Below, piece by piece: positions 23,675 to 48,048 of a stretch of 63,876 bases of DNA (position 1 is the stretch's first letter; every line of letters begins with the position of its first letter). The notes below the pieces were generated by a model. That model searched no databases. It worked only from the letters and a program-made list of their open reading frames with translations, and had not been told where the DNA came from. Source of the DNA: an uncultured Bacillota bacterium (GTDB taxonomy: Bacteria; Bacillota_I; Bacilli_A; RF39; UBA660); the NCBI GenBank assembly GCA_946622285.1, contig CAMOPK010000003.1:1-63876 (forward strand). Reading direction: 5' to 3'. The translations under genes were made by a program, and so were the position numbers.

Positions 23675-24694
23675 TTAAGCATTGATTGAGAATACTAAAT
23701 CGTAATCAATGTTTCCGCCAGATGCAGTGTTTTCACAGTCAACATCTTGACCTTCAACCCACATATATACTCTTACTTTTGTTACGCCTGCTTGTAAACT
23801 AAATATTTGAGTACTTGTACTATTTCCTTCAACAGTACTATATGTAGGAGTTACAGATTTGAAAAGTGAACTATATGTTGTTGCATTTGCTTGACCTAAT
23901 TTAACATTGTTTGCGGCAGTTATTGTACCAATAACTCCATCGTATGAAATTCTATTTGCGCCTGTTTGTTGCGTTGTAATTGCATAAGTATCTCTGGCAT
24001 GTGATACACCATTTGCTGTATGTACATCATAGTTTGGTTCCCACATATATACTGGAGAACTTGCAGCTCCTGTAGTACCTAATGCTTGAATATTAGCAAC
24101 TGTATCTGAAGCAGCTGTATTACCTAATACTACGAATGCAACACGAGAAGCATTTTTAATACCTTTATCTGTTGCGTCTTCAGTTGTTACATCTGAATCA
24201 CCAGTCAAGTATAAATCTGTAGCAGTGTCTGATTTAAAGAATAAATCGAATGCAACAAATTTACCAGTACTTGTACTACCATTTGATTCAGTTTCTACTG
24301 AAGGTGTTGTTGTTAAGATAAAATCTCCATCATCGTTAGCTACAACTACACCATAGAACATTTCTAACTTACCAGAATCATTTACGTTTAATCCAGTTGA
24401 TACAGGTTCCATTGCTGCTGGTAATTGGTTAACACTAGATGTATAAGTTGTACCATGTACACTTGTAAGATCTGTTGTTAATAAGATTGTTTTCCAGTTT
24501 GTACCATCAGCTGATAATTGAATACCACCTTTTGCTTCAACGTTAACTGTGATTGTGTCAACTCTTACTGTTTCATTAGAAGTGAACCATGCATATGTTG
24601 ATGTTACTAACATAGTTCCTGTCATAAATAATAAAAGTAAAAGTAACAACATTCTTTTGTTCTTTCTTTTCTCTGTTTGTTTTCTTTCTTTCAT
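23675..24694 (-). CDS. TasA/camelysin-superfamily-like secreted protein (large class, 339 aa) with a SipW-cognate-type signal peptide
   Basis: N-terminus KRKNKRMLLLLLLLFMTGTMLVTSTYAWFTSNETV. Paralogue of the 369-aa protein. C-terminal motif VRVYMWVEGQDVDCEN. Has its own promoter region and terminator. Confidence 0.7.
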   Translation of the reverse strand: MKERKQTEKRKNKRMLLLLLLLFMTGTMLVTSTYAWFTSNETVRVDTITVNVEAKGGIQLSADGTNWKTILLTTDLTSVHGTTYTSSVNQLPAAMEPVSTGLNVNDSGKLEMFYGVVVANDDGDFILTTTPSVETESNGSTSTGKFVAFDLFFKSDTATDLYLTGDSDVTTEDATDKGIKNASRVAFVVLGNTAASDTVANIQALGTTGAASSPVYMWEPNYDVHTANGVSHARDTYAITTQQTGANRISYDGVIGTITAANNVKLGQANATTYSSLFKSVTPTYSTVEGNSTSTQIFSLQAGVTKVRVYMWVEGQDVDCENTASGGNIDYDLVFSINA

Positions 24695-24748
24695 TTTCTA
24701 CAACTCCATTTCTTTCTAGAGACTTTCTCTCTTTACCTTACGAACTCA

Positions 24749-24757
24749 TTTTAGCAT
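24749..24757 (-). promoter_or_regulatory. Extended -10-like element (TGCTAAAAT) for the 339-aa TasA-like gene
   Basis: Plus-strand attttagca reverse-complements to TGCTAAAAT, ~55 nt upstream of the ATG. GGAG RBS precedes the ATG. Confidence 0.4.
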
Positions 24758-24781
24758 ATGTTTTTTTACTATACAACTAGT

Positions 24782-24843
24782 GTTTACACAAAAACAACTA
24801 CAGTTTACACAATTTGTAAAATCAAGTGTTGTACATTGTAAAC
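24782..24843. promoter_or_regulatory. Cluster of GTTTACA(C)AA motifs, a candidate operator
   Basis: gtttacacaa occurs at 24782-24791 and 24803-24812 (exact direct repeat, 21-bp spacing). Inverted copies are ttgtaaac at 24836-24843 and ttgtaaaa at 24814-24821. Confidence 0.4.
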
Positions 24844-24878
24844 GTATTGTTTTTTAAGGCTTTATATCAATTTTATTT

Positions 24879-25463
24879 TTAGTCTTCTTCTAAAATTTGC
24901 TTAGAATCAACAACAATCTCGATACTTTCAACAATATCTTGATAATTATAAGACATATAATCAAGTGGAAAATAAATAACCAATTGATAACTATATGTTT
25001 GATTAGTTTCAAAACTAAAAGTTTCCCTAGGTGCTACCATCGTTTTAAAATATGTTCCATCTTCATCAGCTGCAATAGATGTAGTTGACGAAATAATATT
25101 TGTAGCACCATTGGCATTATATGCTTGATTTTTATAAAGTTCATATGAAAGTGGCAAATTAGTAGTAGTTACAATTTTTAAATCATAAAGAGCATCTACA
25201 CCTAATCTATTAGTGCCATCATTATTTGAAACTGTAAAATTCACGATATATGGATCATTACTTGGCTCTAATTTGCTCAATACTACGTTCTTTCTTTGAT
25301 ATTCTGTATTAATGATATAAAATGCAACATTAATATCAGGATTAGTATTTGCACTAGACTGATATCTAGAAAATACCTTTGGTAGAATAGCAAGTGCTGT
25401 CATCAAAAGTACTATTGCCATTGATGCTTTGATTGCTAATATAAAACGTTTTTTTGATATCAT
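24879..25463 (-). CDS. Secreted protein with a SipW-class-like signal (194 aa), small accessory subunit candidate
   Basis: N-terminus KKRFILAIKASMAIVLLMTALAILPKVFSRYQSS. ATGA start/stop overlap with the upstream sipW. Confidence 0.5.
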   Translation of the reverse strand: MISKKRFILAIKASMAIVLLMTALAILPKVFSRYQSSANTNPDINVAFYIINTEYQRKNVVLSKLEPSNDPYIVNFTVSNNDGTNRLGVDALYDLKIVTTTNLPLSYELYKNQAYNANGATNIISSTTSIAADEDGTYFKTMVAPRETFSFETNQTYSYQLVIYFPLDYMSYNYQDIVESIEIVVDSKQILEED

Positions 25464-26017
25464 TTTTTCTTGCCTCCTATATCTAAGATTTCAATTCCAT
25501 CTTTGTCATATTTAACTTTATTTTTCTTTGGAATATATGAAACACATATACTAAATAAGAATAAAGTTATAACAATTGAAATAAAGATTTTAGGAGTTAA
25601 CAATATATCAACAAAAGAACTTGCTTTACTAAATACATGAACTACTTTTCCTACAATCATATCTTTAGTTATTGGAGAGTCACTACTATTATTACTATCT
25701 CCTCGTGTAATTATTTCTTTTCCTTTTTTTTCAACTACACGGTGAGTTATAAAGTTATCATCTTTGTAAAACGTAATAATGTCATCTTTTTTTACATCTT
25801 TATCGATTTTAACAATAATTACATCACCAATTTCTAACGTTGGTGACATACTTCCAGTTACAACACTAAAAGCAGTATAACCAAATAAATTAAAATATTT
25901 TTTACTTTGGACTTTTAATTGATAAAGTCCATATAAAGAAAAAATAATAGCAATTGATGTGATAAATAATAAAATATCAACAACAATTCGCATTATCTTT
26001 TCAGCTGTTTTTATCAT
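25460..26017 (-). CDS. sipW: Signal peptidase I, SipW/archaeal-ER type (S26B), catalytic motifs intact
   Basis: VVTGSMSPTLEIGDVIIV (Ser box), ITHRVVE (His box), TRGDSNNSSDSP (Asp box) and a C-terminal TM anchor. Confidence 0.85.
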   Translation of the reverse strand: MIKTAEKIMRIVVDILLFITSIAIIFSLYGLYQLKVQSKKYFNLFGYTAFSVVTGSMSPTLEIGDVIIVKIDKDVKKDDIITFYKDDNFITHRVVEKKGKEIITRGDSNNSSDSPITKDMIVGKVVHVFSKASSFVDILLTPKIFISIVITLFLFSICVSYIPKKNKVKYDKDGIEILDIGGKKK

Positions 26018-26034
26018 TTATCTTCACCTTGCTA

Positions 26035-26646
26035 TTATTCATATTCAACTAATTCTTCACCTAAATATTGCATTACATCAATTTGCACAGGTATTGATAT
26101 TGAGCCATCAATATTCATTCCTATTTCTGTATCAATATCATTATTTTGTTCATCATTATCCCACTTTATCGCAACTCTTACACTACTAAATGCATTATTT
26201 CGTATTTCACTTAACGTTATTATTCCAGAATAAACATTTTCACCAGTTCTTACTAGTGTCCTTCCATTCAACTCAGCAATTTCATCGACAACTAAACTAG
26301 TTGATAGTTCTGAAAAGTCAAATGTAATATCATATCTAATTGAGACATCAGTACCACTAGGAATAATATTTAAATCAAAATATGCACTTGTACCAGGAGC
26401 CATTCTATTTTGAACAACATGTTCGTTAGTAGATATATTAACATTATTAACTGTGAATTGTGTAGTATCACCAGAAATATTTGTACCATTAACATAAATG
26501 TTCCAAGATCCAGCTGTTGTTCCTGCTTGAACACTTATTTCGCTTTCAAATAAAGCATATGAGTCACGAACATTATAAATGGTAATTCCTAGCATAATTA
26601 CTACTGCCACAATAAGTAGAATTTTAGCGTTTTTACTTTTTTCCAT
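26035..26646 (-). CDS. TasA-family-like secreted protein (small class, 203 aa) with a SipW-cognate-type signal
   Basis: KILLIVAVVIMLGITIYNVRDSYALFESEISV. The motifs MAPGTSAYFDLNI and VRVAIKWDNDE are shared with the 193-aa paralogue. Confidence 0.65.
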   Translation of the reverse strand: MEKSKNAKILLIVAVVIMLGITIYNVRDSYALFESEISVQAGTTAGSWNIYVNGTNISGDTTQFTVNNVNISTNEHVVQNRMAPGTSAYFDLNIIPSGTDVSIRYDITFDFSELSTSLVVDEIAELNGRTLVRTGENVYSGIITLSEIRNNAFSSVRVAIKWDNDEQNNDIDTEIGMNIDGSISIPVQIDVMQYLGEELVEYE

Positions 26647-27166
26647 TATTTGGGTTCTTTACTTCCATAATTACAGCATATACTAAATATATAAACATTA
26701 GAAGTACTGGCAAAATTATTAGGAAAAGGAAGCCCCATCTAGATTCAAGAACAGATAAAGCTGTACCAAGTCCACTATAAACTTTGCTTGTTTCAGCCTT
26801 TCCTATAATATATCTACTTGTTAATTTTAAGTTTCCTTCAATTGTAAATGTACTTTCAGTTTCAGTAACTTTAGTATTATTAACAACGTCACCTAAATTA
26901 ACAGAAACTTGATGCTCTTTTCCATTATAGAAAAATATTTTATCTCCAGCCTCTATTTCAGAATCTGCATTACGTTTTACAATAACCAAATCGCCTTTTT
27001 TAAAACTTGGTTCTAACGCATCATCTTTAACAATTATAAATGTATTTTTGCCTATTACAGTTAAATTATACTCATTATAATTTAATAGACAAATCGTAAG
27101 TCCTAATGCAATAGTAATATATATAACTATCACAATTCCAATCAAAAATTTTAATACTTTTTTCAT
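26633..27166 (-). CDS. SipW-like protein with a degenerate active site (predicted pseudo-peptidase)
   Basis: Same architecture as SipW (N-terminal TM, beta core, C-terminal TM). The Ser box reads VKDDALEPSFKKGDLVIV, with Ala at the position of the nucleophile Ser. His is retained (KEHQV). No GD.N..D box. Confidence 0.65.
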   Translation of the reverse strand: MKKVLKFLIGIVIVIYITIALGLTICLLNYNEYNLTVIGKNTFIIVKDDALEPSFKKGDLVIVKRNADSEIEAGDKIFFYNGKEHQVSVNLGDVVNNTKVTETESTFTIEGNLKLTSRYIIGKAETSKVYSGLGTALSVLESRWGFLFLIILPVLLMFIYLVYAVIMEVKNPNNGKK

Positions 27167-27214
27167 TCTATCACCATCCGAAGTATAACATATTACCCTT
27201 TATTTTGCAATACT

Positions 27215-28768
27215 TCACTCTTTCTTTTCAACAATATCAAGGGCATTAAAAACAAATTCCATATTATCAAGATTAGCATTGATTTTTTTGAAATGAATGT
27301 TATTTGATAATGCTGTTGTTGCATCTATTAAACCATCAATGTTTTCTTCTTCTAACATTTCTGGTGTAATATTTAAGCCTAGCAAATTATATTTATCAAA
27401 TATTACCATTGCAATATCACGTTCATCTGTTATATATATGTTTTTAATGACATCAAGTTCATAATTAAATAGATAATAATTTATTTCATAGATTGTTCTA
27501 TTAACATCATCATCTGTTAATGTTTCATCACTACTTTTAATTAACCTATTTATGTATCGATAATCAGAAACAGCTAGTTCTAAAGCTTCATATATACTAG
27601 TCGTTTCATTTAATGAAGCAACACGCTCTAAAAATAGATTATCTTCATATTCACGATATAAACCTTCAACTTGTAAAATCATTACATTTACTTTGTTAGT
27701 CAAATCTTCTATTTTTTCAAGTTTTTTACCTTTAGAAATCATTTTATTTAATTTTTTACTAGTACTAATTAGTTTGCTTTCTAGTTTTTCGATTTCTTTC
27801 TTTTTAGGTGCTGCTATTTTATTATATTTTTCTTTTTCTTTATATATCTTTTTAATATCATCAACAATATATTTATATTTTAAATATGACTTATATTCTT
27901 TAAGTGAATCATTTAATTTTAAAACATTTGTGTTGATGGCATCTGTAACTTCAGCACCATCTTTTAAAATCATTTTATAATTTTTTTCAATTTGAATATC
28001 AGTATAATCTTTAAAATTTAAAATACGATTTAAAAATTTATTGCATATTAAATAATTATCTTCAAGAATTAAAGTATTTTGTCTTTTCTTTAAGCCTAAA
28101 TATTCATCAAATATACCTTCAGCATCTTTTTGCTTATTTTGCATCAAAATTATTTTTTGATCCGCATAATAATTATCAAAATACTTCATATATTTATAGA
28201 ATAAATATTTAAAGTTAATTGTTATTTGTTTAATTAAATCTGGACATTTCCAATAAAGTGAATCAAATAGCATTTTTAGTTTTGCACTGTTAATTCCATT
28301 TTGACGCTCAGCAAATACTTCATTTATATACATCGAAGTATAGATGCTATAGACAAAATCATCTGGACATAATTCAATACCAACTTTTTCAAATATATTT
28401 ATTGATGCAAAAATATTTTCATTTGCTACTTCTAAACTTGATTTATAGAAGTGATCCAAACTATAGAATATACGATCAAGACCACTTTTTTCATAAGATG
28501 TTGCTGTATCATTTAATATAGGCATCAATTTATACATTTCTTGAATCTTTTGATTTAATACTTCTAGTTCAGGATTTAATTCATAACTACTATATTCTTT
28601 ATATCTTGATTTAATTTCATTTAAAACAGTATCACAGTCTTCCGTATACTTTTTAATTAATTTATCAATTTCCGAAACACATTTCGTGCGATTTTTAACA
28701 TTATTTCTAGGTAAAGCATCTATGACTTCTTTACTAACATTGAATTCATTTTCATAATCATTTATCAT
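27215..28768 (-). CDS. Cytoplasmic, largely alpha-helical/coiled-coil protein of unknown function (517 aa)
   Basis: No signal peptide or TM segment. Lys/Glu-rich heptad-like stretch KKKEIEKLESKLISTSKKLNKMISKGKKLEKIEDL. Second gene of the unit that continues into the sipW-like genes. Confidence 0.55.
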   Translation of the reverse strand: MINDYENEFNVSKEVIDALPRNNVKNRTKCVSEIDKLIKKYTEDCDTVLNEIKSRYKEYSSYELNPELEVLNQKIQEMYKLMPILNDTATSYEKSGLDRIFYSLDHFYKSSLEVANENIFASINIFEKVGIELCPDDFVYSIYTSMYINEVFAERQNGINSAKLKMLFDSLYWKCPDLIKQITINFKYLFYKYMKYFDNYYADQKIILMQNKQKDAEGIFDEYLGLKKRQNTLILEDNYLICNKFLNRILNFKDYTDIQIEKNYKMILKDGAEVTDAINTNVLKLNDSLKEYKSYLKYKYIVDDIKKIYKEKEKYNKIAAPKKKEIEKLESKLISTSKKLNKMISKGKKLEKIEDLTNKVNVMILQVEGLYREYEDNLFLERVASLNETTSIYEALELAVSDYRYINRLIKSSDETLTDDDVNRTIYEINYYLFNYELDVIKNIYITDERDIAMVIFDKYNLLGLNITPEMLEEENIDGLIDATTALSNNIHFKKINANLDNMEFVFNALDIVEKKE

Positions 28769-28886
28769 CTGTTTTTTCTGTCTCCGCTACTTCTTTTTTT
28801 GCTGTTTCAAGTATTTTTATATAATTGTTTATATTCTTATATAATGTTAATAAATCTTCGTTACTTAAATCTTTAAGATTTTCCAT
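28758..28886 (-). CDS. Unlisted 42-aa ORF, translationally coupled to the 517-aa gene
   Basis: Manual translation gives MENLKDLSNEDLLTLYKNINNYIKILETAKKEVAETEKTDDK. Its stop overlaps the downstream ATG (ATGATAAATGA). It falls below the 60-aa ORF-track cutoff. Confidence 0.35.
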   Translation of the reverse strand: MENLKDLSNEDLLTLYKNINNYIKILETAKKEVAETEKTDDK

Positions 28887-28949
28887 AATATAGCACTTCC
28901 CTACTATTTATAATTATATCTAATTTTTTCATTTAAGTCTATATTTTAA

Positions 28950-28979
28950 GAAAAAACTTGCAAAAATATTGCAAGTTTT
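28950..28979 (-). terminator. Rho-independent terminator after the 2884-aa gene
   Basis: Stem aaaacttgcaa (28953-28963) pairs with ttgcaagtttt (28969-28979), followed by a T-run on the minus strand. Confidence 0.75.
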
Positions 28980-31900
28980 TACTTGATAATTATATAACGA
29001 TAAACTTCACCAATATATGTATTTTCGTCATATAATCTAATTTCTAGTTTATAAGTACCTGACATTAAATTATCCTTCATATATAAGAAATGTGTTAGGT
29101 TTGCAACTGGATTATCACTTAGAATATATTCGTTAGTTCCAGAACTTGTTAATGAAGTTGTGAAATAATCTGCAAAATCTACTTCATTATATACTGTTGA
29201 ATATATTTCGCTATAATCTCTTCTATATAGCTTAACACGTAGATTTGGATTACTAAATCCTGATTCATACGATATTGTTGCCAATAAGGCATTTGAATTA
29301 TTTAAGTTTTTACCAGTATCTTTATCCCAGAACAAGCAATTTTCAGGAATACTTAATGTTAATCCATATAAAGTATCCATTACTTTTAAGTTTAGTTCTA
29401 GTGTATCAGATGACTCTAAACCATAATAAACGCCATCTGGTGAACCGAATGATTCAATTATAATTTTATAATTTCCTCCGGCTAAACTACTGTTTTCAGC
29501 ATGAACTTTTATTCTTGAGGATACATTAGCGACTCTCTCAGCAATCTTAATACGAGTTTCACCATTATCTCTTGGATAATAGATAATACCATTATTTTCA
29601 AAGTAAATACCTAATAAACTTGAACTAGTAACTTTGTTATTATATTCATCATATATTGATATTTTTATACCTAATTGTTGATCATAATAATTTGTATCAA
29701 TAATTGTATCAGATAATACTTTTTGTTGAATAAAGTTTGTATTAATGTTTATATCCATATTATTACCATTATAGAATTTAAGTGTATCAATTTGACCAGA
29801 CAAATCAATAACAGCATCTTTATTATGATATAAGTCATATACCATATTACCTTGTTCAATACCTAATACAGCTAAAATTGTTTGATCATTACTACTTCTT
29901 CTTTCAATTAAGAATGAATTATTTAATACATCAGAAGTAATATTAGTATCTTTAAAATCAACTATAAAGATGAATTCTTCTTCAACATAATGTAAATCAG
30001 AATTATAGTAAATTGTATTTGTTAAAGCATCATCATAATGATTATTTACTGATGTACTACCCATCTTTACAAAATTAGAAAGTTTATATGTTGCTTCATC
30101 ATTTAACGCATATTCAGCATTAGCTCGTGCTACATCAGCAGCACTTACAACATAGTAGTAGTAAACTGGCTTATTTTCAAGGTGATAGTCAATCATTGTT
30201 ATCTTTGTGTTTTCAGGTAAAACATATGAAGATACAAGTGAACGATAGTCACCAATTCGATATGGAGTTTGATCTACTTCCATGAATAATGAGAAGAAGG
30301 CACTGAAACTACTCTTATCTGTTATTTTTACATTACTTGAAGCAAACATTTCATATTTTTTACCTGTTGTAATAGTTGCTTCATAATCGTTTGTCGTATA
30401 AATTGCACGGCTTATATTTACATTTATGTTAATTCTTTCAACTTCATTAGTTAAATCATCAACAGGTGTTATCATAACAAGAGAAATAGTTGCTGTTCCC
30501 ATATCTCCAGATGTACCTAAATTTTTAGAATGGTACAAATAGAATAATAAACTTGGAACTGCCGTTGAGTTTTCTTTTTCATAAGTTGTTGTTCCTACTA
30601 TTGGCTGAGATGTGCTAGAAAGGAATTTAGTTTCTCCAACTGTAATCCAACCTGTTTGACCAGGTTTAATTGCAAGTCCCATGTTATTATCTGCATAATC
30701 ATTTGTTGGGGCAACTCTGGATATATTAGATGGATTAATTAAACTTACGCCTTCAGATAAACCATCGTAGTTAAAACCTAATATTGATAATTTAGTATTA
30801 GGTCTTGCATAATTAATGAAACTTAATTCTTCAACACCTAATGTTGAATATTTAGAAGCTGTTAAATTAACTTCATATGTTACAACTTGTTTTCCAACAA
30901 CCCACATATAGAAACTAGCATCAGCTGGTGTTGGTTCAATATAGAATGTTTTAAGTTCAGTTGATTCTTCAGAAACAAGATCGTTTGAATAGAAACCATC
31001 AACTTCAATATCATGAGAATCATAGTGACGCCCTAGGACGTAACTACCACTTGTGAAGTAATAAGCATCTCCTGATGTAGCATTATCACCATAATTATAT
31101 GAACTATTATATAGAGCTGTTACCGGTTGTCCACTACCGCCTTCTCTATACATTCCAAAGAAAGTCATACCTGAAACATCACCATATGAAGTAATGTTTT
31201 CATTAGTTGCAACATTTAAATTCTTATCTTCTTGCATATACAAACGGTTATCTACATTACGAGTTACTGTCTTAGTCTCATCATTAATGCTTACGCTTGC
31301 TTTTACTTCTTCATTATTAACATCAACTAATGAAGTAAATTTTTTAAGAAGATTAGCACCAGTTTTTAGATATAAACTAGTATTATTTTTTATTTTTAAT
31401 TCATCAATACGGCTAAGTGTAAATAGTACATCTGAATATTCATTAGTACGGTCTGTTGCACCTGCCAATTTAACATGTGAATTATCTAAAGTAACTATAT
31501 CAGCTCTCTGAATTGAAATATTATTCTTAACGGCATTTTTAGTGCCATAATTCTTAATCATAATATAACTATATCCAGTTGTAGATGATGCATTACCACT
31601 ACCAAATATTGAACCATTAATATTGAATACATTGTGTTCAGATGCATCAATATTAATATTAATTCCTGTTGTTACACTGATGAAACTATAGTCATAGTTT
31701 TCTGAACCACTGGCATTAGCTTCACCACCACCGAAGACAGTTCCACCAATCGAAATATTACCTGGTGTCAATGTACTCTTATTAACCGCATTTTTACCAA
31801 TATTTAACGTTGTTGTTCCATATAGTACTGATGTATTAGCTCCACCATAAACATTTCCACCAATTGTAGCTCCAACAATATTTACAACTCCTGTTGAATT

Positions 31901-37699: not shown

Positions 37700-37727
37700 T
37701 AAAAAAACCCATATTTAAGATGGGTTT
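37700..37727 (-). terminator. Rho-independent terminator after the 369-aa TasA-like gene
   Basis: Stem aaacccat (37705-37712) pairs with atgggttt (37720-37727). The loop contains the stop codon. A T-run follows on the minus strand. Confidence 0.7.
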
Positions 37728-40223: not shown

Positions 40224-40234
40224 TAGATGTAATA

Positions 40235-40265
40235 AAAAAGTTCTAGTTTTTACTAGGACTTTTTA
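40235..40265. terminator. Bidirectional hairpin between convergent genes
   Basis: aaaaagttctagt / actaggacttttt with one mismatch and loop tttt. It overlaps the 3' end of the 493-aa gene. Confidence 0.5.
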
Positions 40266-41724
40266 TTTTTCCGGATTTATATATATTAATTGCTATTTCA
40301 CGACCAACTTGACTTAACCCAGCAGAATTCAAATGGATTATATTATCAGATGGGCAAAAAATACTTTTATTTCCCTTTGAAAGCTCAGTGTAAGGAAAAT
40401 CAGAGCCTTTAATAATTGTACTATTATTTTTTACTATCTCTTTTTGAACTTCTCGAAGTTTAATGGTATTAGAATCATTTGTTGGATCAGCAAGTGAAGC
40501 ATTAACAATATATACCATTGCTCCAAAAGACAATTTCAAGTCTTTCATTAAACCTTGATGAACTTGCACGTAATTATCTTTATATCTGCTAACAGCATAG
40601 TCGTTAATATCACTTTCACCTTGATACACAACATAAAATCTATTCACAATTTTATTATAATCACTCTTTTTTAGTATATATTCCTCTGCCATTTTATATT
40701 TTTTTACCATTAAATTATATAAGTTAGCTTCTGATGATGGTGTAAATCTAAGTATCGATCTCCCTCCAGAAGCTGCTAAAACTATAATAATTTTATGATG
40801 TGTTTTAGCATAATATTCTTTGGCAAAATACGGAATCATATTTGTTCCTGTACTTATATGAGTTTGATAAGAATCACCAACTTTGATTGAAGTTATTTTT
40901 CCATTTCCAAAATAAGCATTTTCACCAAATGTTTTAGGATTAGTACTTATATCTACTAAAGTATTTTTTAACGCTAGATACTCAAATGCTACATTTTTAG
41001 GCATATCAACAGTTACTCTACTATAAGATACATTATGTAAAACTATATCATTATCAATATTTTTTAGTAACTTTGTATTATTTTCAGTGTTATTTTTCAT
41101 TGTCCCAACCATATTTGATTGGCCCCACATTAGAACTAAATCATAATAATCGTATACATCAAGTGAATACGTTGCAGTCTTTCCATTCTTTGTCTTAGCT
41201 GTTATTGTTGCTGCTCCAGCTCCTTTAGCAGTTACTTTGCCACTGGTTGAAACTGTAGCAATAGTAGTATCACTGCTTGTCCAAGTAATTTCATTATTTT
41301 TAGCATTACTTGGGCTTATAGTTACTTTAAGGTCCAAACTATCGCCAACATTTAAATCTCCACCACTTTGAGCAAATTTGATACCTTGAACTTCAACATT
41401 CGCATTTTTTTCAAAGACTGCTATTAGATTAATATCTCGATTGATTACAGTATTAACGTCAAATTTTTTTCCATCCAATTCCCAATATTTAAAAGTATAT
41501 TCTTTTTTTATTGGATTTTTTGGCAATGAAAGTATTTTACCTTCATACACCTCTACTTCATCATATATTTCATTATCAACTATATATACCACTTTATAAT
41601 TTGTTCTAACTGGAGGAACTTCAATAGATTTTGGTTCATTAATTGGTCTAATAAGTTCATATCCACATGCACCTATTAAAACTATTAAAACTGTCACAAT
41701 TAAGATAAAAAGTGTTTTTTTCAT
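40243..41724 (-). CDS. Lipoprotein: Listeria-Bacteroides repeat + Big_2 Ig-like domain + SASA-type (sialate O-acetylesterase-like, SGNH) esterase domain
   Basis: Lipobox LIGAC. KEYTFKYWELDGKKFD...INLIAVF. Big_2 domain LKVTISPSNAKNNEITWTSSDTTIATVSTSGKVTAKGAGAATITA. Catalytic-block motif LMWGQSNMVG. Confidence 0.7.
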   Translation of the reverse strand: MKKTLFILIVTVLIVLIGACGYELIRPINEPKSIEVPPVRTNYKVVYIVDNEIYDEVEVYEGKILSLPKNPIKKEYTFKYWELDGKKFDVNTVINRDINLIAVFEKNANVEVQGIKFAQSGGDLNVGDSLDLKVTISPSNAKNNEITWTSSDTTIATVSTSGKVTAKGAGAATITAKTKNGKTATYSLDVYDYYDLVLMWGQSNMVGTMKNNTENNTKLLKNIDNDIVLHNVSYSRVTVDMPKNVAFEYLALKNTLVDISTNPKTFGENAYFGNGKITSIKVGDSYQTHISTGTNMIPYFAKEYYAKTHHKIIIVLAASGGRSILRFTPSSEANLYNLMVKKYKMAEEYILKKSDYNKIVNRFYVVYQGESDINDYAVSRYKDNYVQVHQGLMKDLKLSFGAMVYIVNASLADPTNDSNTIKLREVQKEIVKNNSTIIKGSDFPYTELSKGNKSIFCPSDNIIHLNSAGLSQVGREIAINIYKSGKIKSPSKN

Positions 41725-41751: not shown

Positions 41752-41779
41752 TTAAAAAAAGGCAATTCTTAATTGCCTT
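41752..41779 (-). terminator. Rho-independent terminator ending the 48.0-41.8 kb operon
   Basis: Stem aaggcaatt (41759-41767), loop ctt, stem aattgcctt (41771-41779), followed by a T7 run on the minus strand. Confidence 0.8.
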
Positions 41780-42401
41780 GATTTGTTTCTTCTTGCTGTG
41801 TTGCAATTATTTTTACTTGCATAGTTATACTTGATGCTTGAGGATTTGCTTGATGATAATCATATGACTTATTTCCCCAATAAGTATCTGTTAAATCATC
41901 ACCTGATTCATATGGCCAAGAAACAGAAATACTATAATATTCATTAGTATCTCCAACTGCAATTACATCTGTTGATAAAGTTATATTAATTTTAAATGGA
42001 TAATCATTTGCTAATTTATATGCAAGTTCATCACTCGTCATATTTTCATCAGGTTCATATGTTACACCAAATAAAGTGGCTGACATAATTTCATATGAAA
42101 GTTCTGCTGGGGTATCACCATTATTAGCAGCCCTTATATTTCTTGTATATGTTGTCATTCCAGGATAAACATCTGATACATCAATATTTATATAATTAAC
42201 TGATGGCTCTGTGCCAATTTCAAATGCTACATTCCAAGCTTTAACATAAGCTGAAACACTGTTTTGTACACGTGTTGAATATACAAACCAAGCAAATGAA
42301 TTTGATACAAATAAAAGTGCTAATAAAAGTAAAGTTGTTAATTTTGTTCTCTTGAAAACTCGTGCGATTAGTTCAATAATGAATGGTCTTTGCTTTTTCA
42401 T
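41769..42401 (-). CDS. TasA-family-like secreted protein (small class, 210 aa) with a SipW-cognate-type signal
   Basis: LTTLLLLALLFVSNSFAWFVYSTRV and VYPGMTTYTRNIRAANNGDTPAELSYEI. ATGA overlap with the upstream sipW. Confidence 0.65.
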   Translation of the reverse strand: MKKQRPFIIELIARVFKRTKLTTLLLLALLFVSNSFAWFVYSTRVQNSVSAYVKAWNVAFEIGTEPSVNYINIDVSDVYPGMTTYTRNIRAANNGDTPAELSYEIMSATLFGVTYEPDENMTSDELAYKLANDYPFKINITLSTDVIAVGDTNEYYSISVSWPYESGDDLTDTYWGNKSYDYHQANPQASSITMQVKIIATQQEETNQGN

Positions 42402-42958
42402 TTGCCCTTTAATTTCTTTCTTTCTTCGGATATATCTAATATTTCAAAAAATATTAGAATTGATAAAGGAACAAAAAGCAGAAAATAAAATCCATACATA
42501 TTATTAACTAGTCTACTTATCGCACTTATTAAAACTCCTTTAAAAATAACGACTCCTTTTATTTGACTGCCCTCGATTTTAGGGTCTGCTATTTCATTAG
42601 CAATTCCCTTTGTTTCAAACACATATTTGCCATCAACAGTACTTTTACCAATTACTCTGTGTGTAACTATTTTATTGGCAAAGTCCCCTTCTTTTCCAAG
42701 ATATACGACATCGTCACCAATATTGATATCTTCGAACTTTTTTTCTTTCGCAAATACCATATCACCGACATTGTATTCAGGGGCCATACTGGAACTTATA
42801 ATGGTAAATATACTATATCCACCAAGTGTAGCTTTATTATTTGAAACTCTTTGAATAAAAATTACTAAAACAATCAATATTACTGCAAAGGAAAAGAATG
42901 CCTTAATAATAGTGCTTGATATCTTGTAAACTTTATTTTTTCGAATTCTTTTTAACAT
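42398..42958 (-). CDS. sipW: Signal peptidase I, SipW/archaeal-ER type (S26B)
   Basis: IISSSMAPEYNVGDMVF (Ser box) and VTHRVIG (His box), with a C-terminal TM. The Asp box is atypical (TKGIANEIADP instead of GD.N..D). Confidence 0.8.
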   Translation of the reverse strand: MLKRIRKNKVYKISSTIIKAFFSFAVILIVLVIFIQRVSNNKATLGGYSIFTIISSSMAPEYNVGDMVFAKEKKFEDINIGDDVVYLGKEGDFANKIVTHRVIGKSTVDGKYVFETKGIANEIADPKIEGSQIKGVVIFKGVLISAISRLVNNMYGFYFLLFVPLSILIFFEILDISEERKKLKGK

Positions 42959-42970
42959 ATTATTTCCCCA

Positions 42971-44092
42971 CTATATTTTAACTTCATAAATTCTCGATAA
43001 ATATTTATCCATATGTTTCTTAAATATTTTATAGATTTCTCTGTCATTAACAACAGTTTTATATTTAATTACCTCATATTGTTTGCTGACAAGATTCTTT
43101 AGTTGTTCTTCGCTTATTCCACCTTCATTGATATCTATCAACTTTTGCACAATATTTCCAACTAATCTTTCAGTAACTTCTGTTTTATCAACATCTTCTT
43201 TTTTATCACGACTTAAAATATCCATTACTAAATAATCAAGCAAGAATGATTCGTCTAAATAATTTCTAAGTTCACCATTATCAAAATAATCTTTGTTGTC
43301 TTTTACGTTAGTTATATCATCATCCATATGTGTTTGCATATAGTCCCACAATCTCAAAGCATACTGAAAATTAGTATTTTTTAAAATCAAATTAGTCTTT
43401 TTGATTGGTGATGTTACTAATGACAAGTGTTTTTTATGAATTATTTGATATGTTTGATTAGATGTTAAATCTGTTATTCTGTTTTCTAATTTTTCAATTC
43501 TTTCAGCTATACCATTGCCATCTAGATCTTCGTGTTTATCTTCTACTACTTTACTAGATCCAATCGACATTGTAATGCTTACCTTTTCTTGTCCTACTTT
43601 AGTAGTAGCATTATATTCCATTTTTTTATCATCTTTTTCAGAAGATGATAAAATTAAATTTCTCTTCTTTCTAGCAACATAAGACCTCATATTTTGAATA
43701 AGACTATAAATAAATCTATTTTCATAAGTTTCATAGCTTTCTTCTTTATTAATATTCAATATTTTTGAAGGTTTTACATCACCTGTTTTTTTATCTATAT
43801 CTTGAATTAAATTGGTATTTCTTGCAAGATGTTTAATACTTTCAACAGTTACACGTCTTGCAAGTTCTACCTTAACAATATCTTCTTCATTAATGATGAA
43901 ACGGTTTGGATTTCTTAGGATATTGTCAATATATCTTATTGTTTCTTCCATAATATCAAGCCACTCAAAATTACATTCAGTTTTATCATAGTCAGTAACT
44001 ACTTTTAGACTTGAATCAATTTTATTGATGAACATGTTATCTCTAGATTCATTTGATTTATTATAAAGATCAAAAAGTCCTAAGTTTTCCAT
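42971..44092 (-). CDS. Cytoplasmic partner protein of the AAA+ gene; weak McrC/DUF2357-like N-terminal pattern, no recognisable nuclease motif (373 aa)
   Basis: FEWLDIMEETIRYIDNILRNPNRFI..., YETYENRFIYSLIQNM, NTNFQYALRLWDYM. No PD-(D/E)xK-type block is visible. 17-nt gap to the AAA+ gene, with an RBS. Confidence 0.45.
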   Translation of the reverse strand: MENLGLFDLYNKSNESRDNMFINKIDSSLKVVTDYDKTECNFEWLDIMEETIRYIDNILRNPNRFIINEEDIVKVELARRVTVESIKHLARNTNLIQDIDKKTGDVKPSKILNINKEESYETYENRFIYSLIQNMRSYVARKKRNLILSSSEKDDKKMEYNATTKVGQEKVSITMSIGSSKVVEDKHEDLDGNGIAERIEKLENRITDLTSNQTYQIIHKKHLSLVTSPIKKTNLILKNTNFQYALRLWDYMQTHMDDDITNVKDNKDYFDNGELRNYLDESFLLDYLVMDILSRDKKEDVDKTEVTERLVGNIVQKLIDINEGGISEEQLKNLVSKQYEVIKYKTVVNDREIYKIFKKHMDKYLSRIYEVKI

Positions 44093-44109
44093 CCCTTTTC
44101 ACCCTTTTC

Positions 44110-45633
44110 TTATGTTAATTTCTTAAGTCTTAATAGATATTCTTCACATTCTTTCATTTTGCCTTTTCCGAATGTTTTATCTAAGAATTCTATATAACCA
44201 TCAATTTCATCACGAATGTATGAAATGTTTAACTGTTCAAATTTTCGAAGTACCTTACGTGCTAAGAAATAATCTACACCGTCAATTTCTTCACCACCAC
44301 AGGCTACAAAAACTGGAACAAATTTTTTCATGTGCATTACGATACGGTTACCAAACGCAATGCGGAAATGTTTAATAACATAGTTATCCATTTCCTCAAT
44401 TTTATCTAAGGTTTCTTGCTTCATTGGATATTTTTCCATACCTTCTCTAAATATTTTATCTAGATAAGAGTAATTAATATCCTGAGCTTCTGTATCTATT
44501 GGTTCAAATACTTTACCTTTATCATTAATATCGATTGGCATAGCACGGTCGTATACTTTATCTGTTACCATAAATGTTGAGTCATCGTTATTGATTGTAC
44601 CAATGTACCAAACATTCGGTGGTATTTTAAGTTTTCCTTCAATTACATGTTTCGGGTCACTTTTCCAACCACTTGATACAAGTTCAACTATCCACTCATC
44701 TTTATTAGGCATTTCTAGAATAGATAGCATTTCAGCAAAATAATATTCGACACGTGAGATGTTCATTTCATCGAGGATTACTGTGTAAACGTCATCGGTA
44801 TATCCTGCAAGATATAATTCTTTTAAAACTTCTGTTTCATTAAATTTCTTAGTAAATTCGTTGAAATAACCAAAAAGTTCAGTACGATCTCTCCAAGATG
44901 GTTGTACAGACGCTACACATGAGTCATGTTTTAAAAATTTTCCCCACGCATAAGCAAGCGATGTTTTACCAGTACCAGAAATACCTTGTAAAATTACAAG
45001 TTTTGTTGATGCTAGTCCTGAAATAAATATACGAATCATTTCAGTTGTATAATAAAGTTTCAATTTTGACGCTGCAAAGTTTCTGAACATTTCAACCAAT
45101 TCTGGTAGTGTAAATGAATTGTTGTAATTTTGTATTTTATAATTTGCAAATTCTTCATCAATATGTGCCAATTTAGCAAAACGAACATCTCCTACTGGAG
45201 TATTATCTTCAGGTGCATCTGGAACTTCTTCAGTATCAGTTACTCCTGGTTGTAATCCTAAATGTGACACCTTCATTGCAAGTATGTCTTCTTTTTCTTT
45301 CATCAATTTTGAAACTTCATTATTTAAGTTTGCAACTTCTTCTAAAAGTGATTCTTGCTCAACGATTGTTTTACGGAATCTTGCATATTTTTTAACAAGA
45401 AATACAATCAACAATACCAATCCTGCTAATACGATTAGCACGATTAAAATTGCAAGAACGACCATTATCCATTCGGCACCTTTAAAATCGTTCTTATAAA
45501 AATTCACGATTTTCACATAAGCACTGAAGTTAAACATATCTCCTATGCCGCCTATTAAACTTGTTATAACTCCAATAATTGGTGAGAAAAACTGAAGTAA
45601 AAACTCATATACAAATCTAAAAAAAGTATCCAT
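44110..45633 (-). CDS. Membrane-tethered McrB-family (AAA_5) AAA+ NTPase: two N-terminal TM helices, a coiled coil, then the AAA+ core
   Basis: TM segments FFSPIIGVITSLIGGIG and WIMVVLAILIVLIVLAGLVLLIVFLV. Walker A LQGISGTGKTSLA. The McrB-type blocks VQPSWRDRTELFGYF, ILDEMNISRVEYYFAEMLSILE and NVWYIGTINNDDSTFMVTDKVYDRAMPIDI are present. Confidence 0.75.
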   Translation of the reverse strand: MDTFFRFVYEFLLQFFSPIIGVITSLIGGIGDMFNFSAYVKIVNFYKNDFKGAEWIMVVLAILIVLIVLAGLVLLIVFLVKKYARFRKTIVEQESLLEEVANLNNEVSKLMKEKEDILAMKVSHLGLQPGVTDTEEVPDAPEDNTPVGDVRFAKLAHIDEEFANYKIQNYNNSFTLPELVEMFRNFAASKLKLYYTTEMIRIFISGLASTKLVILQGISGTGKTSLAYAWGKFLKHDSCVASVQPSWRDRTELFGYFNEFTKKFNETEVLKELYLAGYTDDVYTVILDEMNISRVEYYFAEMLSILEMPNKDEWIVELVSSGWKSDPKHVIEGKLKIPPNVWYIGTINNDDSTFMVTDKVYDRAMPIDINDKGKVFEPIDTEAQDINYSYLDKIFREGMEKYPMKQETLDKIEEMDNYVIKHFRIAFGNRIVMHMKKFVPVFVACGGEEIDGVDYFLARKVLRKFEQLNISYIRDEIDGYIEFLDKTFGKGKMKECEEYLLRLKKLT

Positions 45634-45636
45634 AAA

Positions 45637-46611
45637 TCACTTCCTTGCAATTATGATTTTATCTTTAAAATCAATTTTTGATGCATTGTCTTTATCAACA
45701 ATTATGTATTCAAATATTTCTAATCGTTTCAAATTAGTTTTATTAAAATCAAAGTCATAGTTTAATTCAATGGCCATTTTATAACCGTTTTGAATCATTT
45801 CAACAACAGCATCTTGATTAAGCTCATATTGTAAACTGTCCATTTTAATGATTAATTTTTCCCTTACGGCATCACTATCAATAAGATTAAATAGTCTAGT
45901 CTTCTTAGATTTTTTATCAAAGATTGAATATGGAAATTCAACAATATATTTACTTACAAAATCATTATTAATTATTTCTTTCAAAATTTTAACAGTTATT
46001 AAAGAATATTCGATGAATAATTTTTGTTCATCAATTATTCCTGAATTATATACTTTCCTAATAGCTGTTTCACTATATAAAATAGGAAATTTAATATCAT
46101 AGTCCAAGTTTACTAATGCAACTCTTGGATTGTTTGTTCTTGCATAATTTAATGAAAAAACATCACTTTTAAATTCACTTAAATATTTAAGTTTTCTAGT
46201 TAAATTATCTTTTAAAAGTTTAGTGAATTCCTTTTGAAAATCAATTTCTCGATTTTTGTCATCACGAATTGATTCAGCAGTTAATACAACTCCTTCAATT
46301 TGATCTAAATGAATAAAATCTAAACCCAAAATAAACTTTACTAATTCGGTTAATGAGCGTATTTTATCTTCGGAATATTCAGAATAAAGCTCATGCATTT
46401 TTTCATTCAAATAATAGTTTAAATTAGAACTTTTATTGCGTGAAACTAGAGGAAAATAATTATAATATCTAACCCCATTATAAGTATTTAATATTTCTTT
46501 AAAATTAGCTTTTGATATTTTACTGCCGCCTATTAGTTTCATATATTGAACTAAACAATCATTAGAAAAATCAATATATTTTTTAGCAATATTAATACTC
46601 ATTTTTTTCAC
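45637..46611 (-). CDS. Cytoplasmic protein of unknown function (324 aa), first gene of the AAA+ trio
   Basis: No signal peptide or TM segment. Its stop lies inside the RBS of the AAA+ gene (AAGGAAGTGATTTATG), which indicates translational coupling. Confidence 0.5.
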   Translation of the reverse strand: MKKMSINIAKKYIDFSNDCLVQYMKLIGGSKISKANFKEILNTYNGVRYYNYFPLVSRNKSSNLNYYLNEKMHELYSEYSEDKIRSLTELVKFILGLDFIHLDQIEGVVLTAESIRDDKNREIDFQKEFTKLLKDNLTRKLKYLSEFKSDVFSLNYARTNNPRVALVNLDYDIKFPILYSETAIRKVYNSGIIDEQKLFIEYSLITVKILKEIINNDFVSKYIVEFPYSIFDKKSKKTRLFNLIDSDAVREKLIIKMDSLQYELNQDAVVEMIQNGYKMAIELNYDFDFNKTNLKRLEIFEYIIVDKDNASKIDFKDKIIIARK

Positions 46612-46618
46612 CCTCTTT

Positions 46619-47536
46619 TTATGTATAACTGAAACTTATTATTGAACTATTATTGGTAATTGGATACGTATAATTTCTAGTAGCATCTATTTTATAAAAT
46701 TTAACTTGGGCACTACTTATAGCCTCAACATTAAAAGTGATACTATTTATATATTCATTACCATTTATAGTTGTAGTTGTATAATTTGTTGCGTTTAAAT
46801 AATATTCGCTTGTCATATCAAGTACAACTGTGTTAGGATCAAATGTTAATGTGATAAGTGCTGATTTACACTTTAATTTATTTTCATTACTTAAATTTGA
46901 ATATGTTGAAATATCAATTTTATCACCAGCATTATAACTACCAAAAGGAGTTACAATTGTATAATAATCAAGTGTATTTGTTATATTAAAATTTAAATAT
47001 GGTCTGTTAACTTTATCTTCTATCTCATATGAAAGTCCAACTGTAGCAACATTTAAAATGAATCTTGCTTTAATAGTTTTTCTATATGGTGCAGTAGATT
47101 GTGCTGTTACTTCAATAAAAGCAGTGTCGCCTTCAGATAAACTTGTTATTGGTGTCAATGTTGCAACAACATTATCAGTGTTAGTTGCGGTAAAAATAGT
47201 TCCCCCTTCTTTGCTTAGATGACAATTAACATTATTAGAACAAAAATATGTTAATTCATATGTTATATCAGAATCACACACTTCTAAATTATTCTTATAA
47301 CTATTTAAATTTATTGATATATTGTAACTATCTACACCAGACCAGTTTTCTACTTGATATATTGCACGATCAACTGTTAATTTATCACTATTAAAGTAAA
47401 AATTCTTAGTTGATAAGTAGTACTCTTTTAGTTCTAAATATATATATCGTCCGTATGTACTACCTAGAATAATTAAAACAAGGCCAACTGCAATAAAGAC
47501 ATAAACTGACTTTTTTAATTTGAATTTCTTCTTCAT
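46619..47536 (-). CDS. Secreted beta-rich protein with a SipW-class-like signal (305 aa)
   Basis: KKSVYVFIAVGLVLIILGSTYGRYIYLELKE. Asn/Thr/Ser-rich and beta-strand-like. 2-nt gap to the upstream SipW-like gene. Confidence 0.55.
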   Translation of the reverse strand: MKKKFKLKKSVYVFIAVGLVLIILGSTYGRYIYLELKEYYLSTKNFYFNSDKLTVDRAIYQVENWSGVDSYNISINLNSYKNNLEVCDSDITYELTYFCSNNVNCHLSKEGGTIFTATNTDNVVATLTPITSLSEGDTAFIEVTAQSTAPYRKTIKARFILNVATVGLSYEIEDKVNRPYLNFNITNTLDYYTIVTPFGSYNAGDKIDISTYSNLSNENKLKCKSALITLTFDPNTVVLDMTSEYYLNATNYTTTTINGNEYINSITFNVEAISSAQVKFYKIDATRNYTYPITNNSSIISFSYT

Positions 47537-47538
47537 AA

Positions 47539-48048
47539 TTATTTCCTCTTAAAAAGCGAATATATTTGATAAAAGAAGAATATAGAAATTGGTAACATTA
47601 TTACAATTAAATAACCAATTCTTGAAGTCAATGCCATTAATAAGTATCCTATTAATGGAATCGTTGAGATTTTATTAGTTTTACCAATTATATAGTCAAT
47701 AGAAAGTTTTCTATTGTTATTTAATGTTATTGTTTTTTCTTTTTCAGTTACGTCTTCAATATTAACAATTTTATCTTTAGATACTAATATTTTATGTTTA
47801 TCGGCAGTATAATAAAAAACTTCGTCATTTTCTTTTAATTCAGATTTATCTTTGGTTATAATTAATAGGCTACCTTTACGGCAATTCATATCTGTTTTGT
47901 TAGAGGTTACTATCAATTTATTCTTAATTTCAATTACTCCAAATGAGTTATATTTATTTAAGAAAAAAGTAACCGTTAACGTTAGCAAAATATATATTAT
48001 GAAGAAAATACCTAACACGATTTTTTTCATTCTACCACCTACTATCAT
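47539..48048 (-). CDS. SipW-like protein with a degenerate active site (predicted pseudo-peptidase)
   Basis: SipW architecture (N-terminal and C-terminal TM). The Ser box is replaced by VTSNKTDMNCRKGSLLII, with Lys at the aligned nucleophile position. His is retained (ADKHKIL). No Asp box. The probable start is MKKIVLG at 48030. Confidence 0.6.
   Translation of the reverse strand: MIVGGRMKKIVLGIFFIIYILLTLTVTFFLNKYNSFGVIEIKNKLIVTSNKTDMNCRKGSLLIITKDKSELKENDEVFYYTADKHKILVSKDKIVNIEDVTEKEKTITLNNNRKLSIDYIIGKTNKISTIPLIGYLLMALTSRIGYLIVIMLPISIFFFYQIYSLFKRK

Follow-up and report, generated by a model that had tools for sequence, protein, structure and literature searches.

A two-module locus of SipW-type signal peptidases, exported subunits and a McrB-like GTPase in uncultured gut Bacilli

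What kind of surface structure, if any, is built by a locus in which SipW-type signal peptidases, a large set of exported proteins and a GTPase of restriction type stand side by side? The question is raised by positions 23675-48048 of contig CAMOPK010000003.1 (assembly GCA_946622285.1), from an uncultured Bacillota bacterium of the RF39 lineage, which we analysed within a stretch of 63,876 nucleotides (the window). An earlier note, made from the sequence alone, had treated this interval as a unit of SipW-type peptidases and proteins with a TasA/CalY-like signal junction, and the co-conservation of its genes in other genomes supports that view. Based on this pattern, on live and dead forms of the peptidases and on the shared junction of the exported proteins, we assign a probability of roughly 55% to the following reading: the interval encodes one chromosomal machine of two modules that travel together, and its subunits form a strand-exchanged heteropolymeric fibre with a giant adhesin.

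Gene content and conservation

The interval comprises 18 open reading frames (ORFs) of 169-2884 amino acids (aa) and one conserved ORF of 42 aa, giving about 19 genes in 24 kb. All lie on the minus strand except J193, and the coordinates of the earlier note were re-found. Genes are labelled by a letter and their length in aa:

47539..48048, minus: R169, SipW-like pseudo-peptidase, catalytically dead, with a transmembrane helix at either terminus; gene one of module 2
46619..47536, minus: Q305, exported protein; N-terminal helix, junction T-Y-G-R-Y
45637..46611, minus: P324, cytoplasmic protein without known fold, directly upstream of the GTPase gene
44110..45633, minus: O507, membrane-anchored McrB-like GTPase, NxD clade
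42971..44092, minus: N373, McrC-like partner with a DUF2357 N-terminal domain
42398..42958, minus: M186, module-2 signal peptidase I of the archaeal/SipW type, active
41769..42401, minus: L210, small exported subunit with an S-F-A-W-F junction
40243..41724, minus: K493, lipoprotein esterase of the SASA family, also carrying Big_2 and Flg_new domains (Pfam); outside the conserved set
39642..40223, plus: J193, small exported subunit, divergent D203 paralogue with its own terminator
38721..39512, minus: I263, exported or membrane-anchored protein with a strong transmembrane helix and a YNGGKFT junction
37715..38824, minus: H369, large subunit, A339 paralogue
28979..37633, minus: G2884, secreted giant; two beta-solenoid blocks, shared signal junction
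28758..28886, minus: 42-aa ORF, small cytoplasmic protein, helical, encoded between F517 and the gene of the giant
27215..28768, minus: F517, cytoplasmic protein placed after the giant gene
26633..27166, minus: E177, catalytically dead SipW-like pseudo-peptidase of module 1
26035..26646, minus: D203, small exported subunit, hub of the small-subunit superfamily
25460..26017, minus: C185, active archaeal/SipW-type signal peptidase I of module 1
24879..25463, minus: B194, small exported subunit
23675..24694, minus: A339, large subunit of high conservation; junction TSTYAWFTSN, 185-nt upstream gap

Conservation was examined in two samples: 88 fetched genome loci, out of 402 loci of the A339 family in species-representative genomes, which were searched by tblastn with all window proteins, and 429 metagenome loci centred on the GTPase, of which the 47 longer than 9 kb were examined for gene order. 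Module 1 has the fixed order J193 (opposite strand), I263, H369, giant, small ORF, F517, E177, D203, C185, B194 and A339, and module 2 the fixed order R169-type pseudo-peptidase, Q305, P324, O507, N373, M186 and L210; the two are adjacent, in either order. The run from Q305 through P324 and O507 to N373 is present in all 47 long loci but one, a contig beginning inside P324, and M186 and L210 follow N373 wherever the contig extends so far. Module-1 genes stand directly beside module 2 in most long loci; otherwise the contig usually ends. Q305 follows the pseudo-peptidase, and P324 is present, in all module-2 loci, while F517 is kept at the same position in 54 of the 88 genome loci. The 42-aa ORF, which is absent from the earlier note, is called as a gene in homologous loci, and its counterparts (29-59 aa, motif L[ST]..ELIE.YK.I..FIKYLE) occupy the same place in 43 distinct loci. 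The earlier note had allowed that the gene set might prove not to be co-conserved in any related genome; since the modules recur across many species, in more than 120 loci of gut and rumen Bacilli, among the 88 genome loci and the 47 long metagenome loci alike, this doubt falls away. We also observed that module-1 genes flank module 2 in loci L022, L056, L144, L147, L166 and L171 (e-D-C-B-(A) upstream, J-I-H-giant downstream), which implies two giant genes or a duplicated module 1.

The families are large and without names. A339 has 2199 homologues in the protein collection, none of them named and none with a Pfam domain, and the D203 family comprises 2757 representative clusters. According to the record titles, the hosts are uncultured Bacilli, "Tenericutes", Erysipelotrichaceae and CAG-numbered gut Firmicutes from gut and rumen. 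One host is represented by a complete chromosome of 1.26 Mb, and the locus takes up about 2% of such a genome. Because it is widespread, occupies this share of the genome and contains an almost invariant GTPase, the system is clearly important to a large uncultured group of Bacilli. Six metagenome-assembled genome records (L011, L021, L023, L026, L031 and L040) are titled Muribaculaceae, Bacteroidaceae, Sphaerochaetaceae or Vescimonas, probably through mis-binning or mislabelling.

One gene of the interval stands apart from this pattern. K493, which the earlier note had counted as an esterase member of the locus, was found only in contigs of the same strain and is the sole strain-specific gene of the interval, inserted between L210 and J193. 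The convergent gap between these two genes is variable: it holds the esterase here, 2-3 kb of other DNA in L013, L014 and L023, and nothing in most loci. K493 was accordingly rejected as a part of the system, as were an 802-aa Big_2 protein, the Flg_new proteins and a 498-aa membrane protein, none of which is co-conserved. The last of these (22140-23636, plus strand) has at least eight membrane helices and no Pfam match and is convergent with A339; tblastn found it in one of the 88 genome loci, L011, the locus of the closest A339 relative.

Terminator-like hairpins lie directly 3' of A339 (23661-23636), H369 (37727-37705) and L210 (41779-41759), and J193 has its own at 40235-40264; the window, a 64-kb metagenome scaffold, has a G+C content of about 28%. 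The length of H369 is uncertain, because its longest ORF begins with a TTG codon and overlaps the end of I263 by 104 nt. The 369-aa substrate of the earlier note is thus present as an ORF, but the gene caller chooses a start that gives 323 aa, and either this start or an internal ATG (Met27) is more likely.

Housekeeping genes flank the locus: priA and fmt border one end, and der, a serpin and Flg_new repeat proteins border the other. An origin as a mobile element or defence island was rejected on account of priA, fmt and der: since these are ordinary chromosomal genes, the locus is chromosomal and not a mobile island. Upstream of it are the serpin, which has a lipoprotein-like signal (53194-54399, minus strand), and a GGDEF diguanylate cyclase with a periplasmic binding domain (57618-59672, minus strand). 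A complete-looking Tad/Flp-type pilus locus (10333-15456, minus strand) lies 8 kb from the SipW interval and encodes two T2SSF (TadB/C-like) proteins, a T2SSE ATPase, a ParA/TadZ-like ATPase and two TadE-like pseudopilins, so the organism has a second, unrelated fibre system. Large surface proteins with DUF285/leucine-rich repeats (LRRs) border the Tad locus at 7616-10318 and 15538-18069.

Peptidases and exported proteins

The earlier note had recognized four SipW paralogues, two of them degenerate, and had proposed a check against the model for archaeal-type signal peptidase I; both the count and the division are confirmed. In TIGR02228 (cut-off 51.85 bits), C185 and M186 pass with 72.9 and 77.7 bits, and E177 and R169 fail with 26.1 and 25.6 bits. 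C185 also matches Peptidase_S24 and S26 in Pfam. Neither active form reaches the equivalog model of B. subtilis SipW (NF046067, threshold 190 bits; best scores 55.6 and 61), and so by sequence C185 and M186 are the same type of enzyme as SipW but are not SipW orthologues. All four proteins have an N-terminal and a C-terminal membrane helix and are homologous by HHalign (E177-R169 100%, C185-M186 99.7%, E177-M186 97.9%), with 33% identity between R169 and E177. The Ser (SM), His (THR) and GD.N..D motifs are kept in the families of C185 (49 sequences) and M186 (28 sequences), the latter also keeping a DP motif, whereas the Ser/His/Asp catalytic motifs are absent from the families of E177 (64 homologues) and R169 (11), which identifies these two as pseudo-peptidases. 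Since both families are well conserved elsewhere in their sequence, they are conserved pseudo-enzymes and not decaying genes. Each dead peptidase shares a module with a live one, and each of the two dead peptidase genes precedes a subunit gene.

Nine proteins of the interval have a basic head and exactly one N-terminal hydrophobic helix of about 19-22 residues. A motif at the helix end, [ST][YF][AGS]x[FYWLM], is found in 98% of the A339/H369 family, 91% of the D203 family, 86% of the L210 family, 100% of the J193 family (n = 21), 76% of the Q305 family (n = 29), 75% of the giant family and 50% of the B194 family (n = 52). It is present in 0% of the I263 family and in 0-2% of the cytoplasmic and peptidase families used as controls, and it follows an N-terminal helix in none of the 26 other ORFs of the window. 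Given this conservation and its absence in I263, eight of the nine proteins, from seven families, share the junction. The earlier note had listed nine substrates with a common junction: there are indeed nine single-helix proteins, but I263 does not belong with the others in this respect. Its own junction, YNGGKFT, is different from the rest yet conserved in its family, and its helix is the strongest of all (transmembrane score 3.01).

Alignments from other genomes give the family consensus after the helix as TsTYAWFTaN for A339/H369, FAWFIY for L210, sYgLFE for D203, TYAKY for J193, TYGRY for Q305 and TYS[KR]F for B194, and the relatives of the giant carry the N-terminal motif TY..[ST][YF][SGA][EDQ][FYLM]. 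In the window itself, the junction of H369 reads TSSYAWFTSN and that of B194 V-F-S-R-Y. The junction fits the -3/-1 rule of small residues and resembles TasA/CalY cleavage sites. CalY/TasA-family proteins from Bacillus plasmids, which are annotated "TasA family protein" and carry PF12389, have GGTYA↓YF at this place, and the cleavage site of B. subtilis TasA (GGTWA↓AF) follows the same pattern.

Comparison of the small subunits by HHalign links D203 to J193 (99.9%), B194 (95.6%) and L210 (93.7% over 155 columns), and the first ~55 residues of A339 match the D203 profile at 90%. These profile matches support a single superfamily for B194, D203, J193 and L210, with A339 and H369 sharing its N-terminal part. 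A339 and H369 are 41% identical to each other; the A339 family alignment has 56 invariant columns, and the protein carries the motif YMWVEGQDVDCEN. At the C-terminus of both is an invariant Y-M-W-[VI]-E-G-Q-D-V-D-C-E-N, which holds the sole cysteine of the mature proteins. I263 ends in a related W-L-E-G-D-D-P-D-C (87.6% to A339 by HHalign over the C-terminal 37 columns), so that WxEGxDxDC is common to all three; the motif could be a candidate site for metal binding or for a covalent cross-link. In other metagenomes, N-terminal domains like D203 are fused to BspA-type LRRs or to ephrin-receptor-like Cys-rich repeats and, in one 3424-aa protein, to a C-terminal domain resembling formylglycine-generating enzyme (FGE)-sulfatase (fused relatives P0205, P0226 and P0211). 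Such fusions behave as would be expected of a module for incorporation into a fibre that carries adhesin domains.

The giant protein bears out the earlier description of a giant beta-helix protein with the same signal class, given its repeats and the junction found in 75% of its family. The [FY]GG[GSA] motif occurs 34 times in G2884, recurring about every 24-27 residues in blocks at 718-1220 and 1404-1967, and these repeats fit a beta-solenoid. They are followed by a non-repetitive C-terminal part of about 780 residues. The protein has no match among Pfam families or PDB sequences and no sorting signal. Other genomes encode giants of 2500-2700 aa at this place, and by its architecture G2884 is a probable adhesin.

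The GTPase module

The other proteins of the conserved set are intracellular or anchored in the membrane: transmembrane prediction found no helix in F517, N373 or P324 and two in O507. The latter has a helix at 12-30, a conserved outer loop, a second helix at 62-80, a coiled coil and then an AAA+ domain. It matches McrB (NF008457, E 8e-5; McrB in the PDB, E 1.5e-3) and, over the AAA+ core only, the PADLOC candidate PDC-M26A (E 5e-36), which was the sole match in the PADLOC scan. Walker A, Walker B and an INNDDS motif ('TINNDDST') are invariant in 28 species, although the motif could read NxxD in an ungapped alignment to E. coli McrB. From residue 150 on, most positions are identical in at least 90% of the 28 species, which is beyond any subunit, and the outer loop is conserved as well. 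Residues 60-115 gave sub-threshold matches to FtsL (PF04999) in four of six homologues (E 0.007-0.055), residues 85-125 are heptad-rich, and designed coiled coils in the PDB match residues 47-114.

N373, which is next to O507 throughout, matches PF09823 (DUF2357) over residues 28-153 with 44.6 bits (cut-off 23.3) and has no nuclease or other family match in Pfam. DUF2357 is the N-terminal domain of McrC, which activates the McrB hexamer in McrBC. Two hallmarks of McrBC are nonetheless missing: a PD-(D/E)xK nuclease was not detected in N373, and the N-terminus of O507 is a membrane helix and coiled coil.

Of the remaining cytoplasmic proteins, P324 has no relative in Pfam or the PDB and only a weak match to a designed TIM-barrel beta-alpha unit; a degenerate EAL-like domain suspected by eye in its C-terminal half was rejected, as a Pfam scan of 12 family members (E ≤ 1) gave no support. 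F517 has no match in Pfam, the PDB, PADLOC or PHROGs, and P324, F517 and the 42-aa protein have no detectable relatives beyond this system. Like the exported subunit families, F517 and P324 are without a name, a Pfam family or a solved relative. Searches of PHROGs with ten proteins returned nothing relevant and thus no link to phages. The 'AAA+ trio' of the earlier note therefore reduces to a single AAA+ protein, O507, accompanied by the McrC-like N373 and by P324, which has no known fold. Its suggestion of non-canonical cytoplasmic components is upheld: they are real and integral parts of the system, since the module-2 genes are co-conserved.

Proposed machine, alternatives and known systems

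In the reading that we prefer, the subunits would be exported by the Sec system and then cleaved by C185 or M186 behind the small junction residue ([ST][YF][AGS]↓x[FY]). Cleavage would leave an aromatic at position 2 of the predicted mature protein, with an amphipathic strand next in line; in the AbpX study, an aromatic at this position is a feature of the donor strand in AbpX homologues, a clade of the TasA superfamily. Together with the D203-like fusions, it indirectly favours a role as fibre subunits. The subunits would then polymerise outside the cell by N-terminal strand donation, as do TasA, BsaA, Tafi and AbpX. We propose A339, H369 and L210 as the abundant subunits, because each has a terminator-like hairpin, and A339, which also has its own upstream gap, as the candidate major subunit. 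B194, D203, J193 and Q305 would be minor or adaptor subunits, I263 a membrane-proximal base or anchor, with its strongest helix and no cleavage-type junction, and the giant protein the adhesin borne by the fibre. The dead peptidases would hold or hand over uncleaved precursors without cutting them, a role we liken to that of the DUF5305 accessory protein of archaeal loci, in function and not in ancestry. Finally, an FtsB/FtsL-like helix and coiled coil would anchor a GTPase hexamer that N373 activates; working from the cytoplasm by way of its outer loop and the peptidase pairs, this hexamer would gate assembly or supply its power. What the GTPase does is at once the model's weakest and its most interesting step. 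A loose precedent for GTPase-driven assembly may be seen in C. perfringens BsaA, a protein of a SipW operon that polymerises by strand exchange and depends on an NTPase-driven apparatus, that of type IV pili, for efficient secretion.

Several results weigh against this reading, most of them concerning TasA. The earlier note had called the substrates TasA-like, and by sequence they are not members of the TasA family, as they lack a Peptidase_M73 match and reach at most 9.4% in HHalign. Scans of the 18 proteins against Pfam and NCBIfam returned no TasA, camelysin, TapA, CPF_0494 or RER_14450 family, and PF12389 (Peptidase_M73), which all true TasA proteins examined carry, matched none of the nine substrates at E ≤ 0.01 and none of ten diverse D203 relatives. 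None of the nine N-termini passes the SipW-cognate signal model TIGR04088 (cut-off 19 bits); at E ≤ 10 the sole match is A339, with 11.8 bits and E 0.21. HHalign of seven families to a TasA profile gave probabilities of 0.1-9.4%, a negative result that is not strong because this profile, limited to B. cereus-group proteins and one further sequence, is shallow. To the eye there is a likeness between the final two strands of L210, D203 and J193 ('SITMQVKIIATQ') and the C-terminus of TasA/CalY ('SIKLQFSFEATQ'), with a preceding acidic loop; HHalign places these strands colinear with TasA/CalY without significance, and we regard this as a lead only. The family profiles of A339 and D203 found no match among PDB sequences.

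Structure prediction, proposed in the earlier note as a check, gave a partial answer. The AlphaFold2 model of D203 (pLDDT, or predicted local distance difference test, 76) is a beta-sandwich whose helix is continuous to residue 43. Its lowest-E match in Foldseek is the TasA fibre (8aur_A, E 1.2e-3, probability 0.75, TM-score 0.22), and it also matches an archaeal cannula (9h8b, probability 0.99, TM-score 0.36/0.46), sortase pilins, chaperone-usher pilins, cohesins and carbohydrate-binding modules (CBMs); unrelated beta-sandwiches score alike. These matches are marginal (TM-score 0.2-0.46) and common to generic beta-sandwiches. The beta-rich model of A339 (pLDDT 80, predicted TM-score 0.81) found nothing below E 0.05 in the PDB and nothing in BFVD. 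On the side of mechanism, to our knowledge no TasA-type system needs a cytoplasmic nucleoside triphosphatase (NTPase), and we know of no mechanism by which a McrB-type GTPase acts on an extracellular polymer. No LPXTG-like motif occurs in the last 60 residues of any interval protein, and, because all hosts are uncultured, there is no phenotype.

The absence of TasA homology that can be demonstrated is also what speaks for a non-filamentous surface complex or coat, in which the processed paralogues and the giant adhesin would remain monomeric, or in small complexes, on the membrane or wall. The D203 fold matches include generic sandwiches such as cohesins and CBMs, A339 has no fibre-like structural neighbour, and D203-like domains on LRR or Cys-rich repeats could be mere anchoring domains. 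We nevertheless think such a coat unlikely, since seven subunit families with dedicated peptidases in fixed order reproduce the pattern of Tafi/AbpX-type heteropolymeric fibres, the position-2 aromatic and amphipathic strand fit a donor strand, and the structural match of D203 with the lowest E is a fibre subunit. If the filament exists, its N-terminal helices might instead be retained: in a GTPase-driven pilus like type IV, they would form the filament core, the SipW-like proteins would serve as platform or trim some of the subunits, and the GTPase would provide the energy for extracting subunits from the membrane. The long, transmembrane-like helices (~19-22 residues), the unbroken D203 helix in the model, the loss of catalytic residues from half of the peptidase paralogues, and a membrane-anchored, highly conserved NTPase with a conserved outer loop that is integral to the locus would all suit this arrangement. 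It is rendered improbable by the intact catalytic residues of two SipW-type peptidases, by a junction that obeys the -3/-1 rule and resembles TasA/CalY cleavage sites, by junction regions that are modelled with pLDDT below 50, as a flexible linker would be, by the lack of a PilC-like polytopic platform protein in the locus and by the complete Tad pilus locus already present elsewhere in the genome.

The GTPase module invites a different explanation, namely that module 2 is a McrBC-derived defence system, a relative of CoCoNuT, which lies beside the surface locus or uses it, for example to sense phage attachment to the fibre and set off a response. The PADLOC candidate match of O507 and its place in the NxD clade, which includes CoCoNuT systems, are consistent with such an origin, but we judge it very unlikely. 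N373, P324 and O507 contain no nuclease or effector domain, the PADLOC match is limited to the AAA+ core, and the trio is always within the peptidase/substrate operon, between Q305 and M186; moreover, O507 is nearly invariant across species, unlike fast-diversifying defence genes, and the locus lies between housekeeping genes and in no defence island. Returning to the strand-exchanged fibre, a bolder version of it, which we offer tentatively and with considerable doubt, is that the locus represents a new class of Gram-positive NTPase-coupled filament, in which a McrB-family GTPase, derived from a restriction system and tethered to the membrane by a divisome-like helix and coiled coil, and pairs of live and dead peptidases drive or control assembly of a strand-exchanged heteropolymeric fibre with an adhesin of 2900 residues. 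Small-genome gut Bacilli, which probably live in dependence on other cells, would then have in this filament their principal organelle of attachment.

Should the fibre reading hold, the strand-exchanged type of TasA, Tafi and AbpX would extend to a much more elaborate bacterial form, dead signal peptidases would gain a role as assembly partners, a non-defence McrB-type GTPase would acquire its first functional context, and these gut organisms would have a surface structure for attachment to hosts or partner cells. Should it fail, one would still have to explain why a restriction-type GTPase is so strictly co-conserved with genes for secretion.

The nearest bacterial counterparts are B. subtilis tapA-sipW-tasA, B. 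cereus sipW-tasA-calY and C. perfringens sipW-bsaA, which likewise have a dedicated archaeal-type peptidase beside its substrates, several paralogous substrates and a T-[YFW]-A↓x-F junction with an aromatic at position 2. The window locus differs from them in its substrates without detectable TasA/Peptidase_M73 homology, its four peptidase paralogues (two dead) versus one, its giant protein, its cytoplasmic GTPase module and its lack of TapA. The earlier statement that no TapA-like or sortase/LPXTG gene is visible agrees with Pfam, NCBIfam and the motif scan of the last 60 residues: sortase families are missing from the Pfam matches of the interval proteins, and the LPXTG signal and sortase of sortase-dependent Gram-positive pili were not found in the interval. 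Besides signal peptidase I and the accessory protein DUF5305, the archaeal Tafi/AbpX loci of the TasA superfamily encode minor, tip and anchor components, and an arrangement of tip, adaptor, core and anchor has been modelled for Tafi. In the window locus, as in these, a dedicated peptidase goes with a non-catalytic partner, the small subunits are several and paralogous, and strand donation is predicted to join a large tip or adhesin to the fibre; the window locus differs in that the partner is a dead peptidase paralogue and not DUF5305, that export is apparently by Sec and not Tat, that the hosts are gut Bacilli and that a McrB-like GTPase module is present. With E. coli McrBC, the module has in common the AAA+ GTPase core with Walker A/B and a sensor Asn motif and the partner with the McrC N-terminal DUF2357; unlike McrBC, it has a transmembrane helix and coiled coil in place of the DNA-binding domain, no PD-(D/E)xK nuclease, NxD and not NxxD, and a setting in a secretion/assembly operon.

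Given such precedents, the claim of the earlier note that no such system has been described was too strong: loci with minor and tip subunits have been proposed for Tafi/AbpX, and CoCoPALM was named in 2024. Bell et al. (eLife 2024) give the name CoCoPALM to McrB-like GTPases of one clade, whose NxD motif usually precedes a D or E and which are fused to an FtsB-like transmembrane and coiled-coil segment, pair with coiled-coil McrC homologues and associate with signal-peptidase-family proteins. Their account is one paragraph, without gene lists, substrates or mechanism, and defers the analysis to a later paper, which our literature search did not find. Its text is without the two dead peptidases, the seven subunit families, the giant, F517, P324 and the 42-aa protein. 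The literature searched describes neither the 19-gene architecture with its pairs of live and dead peptidases nor the seven subunit families, which are without names, the giant that carries their signal, F517, P324 or the 42-aa protein, and it gives the GTPase no function. In other respects the likeness is close: O507 has the NxD motif (INNDDS) and a membrane helix followed by a probable coiled coil, N373 has DUF2357 without a nuclease, and the trio stands between R169 and M186, in the window as in every long locus. On the strength of the invariant INNDDS and the sub-threshold FtsL matches to the helix and coiled coil of O507, module 2 fits CoCoPALM, an assignment made by matching the published description and not by the tree of Bell et al.

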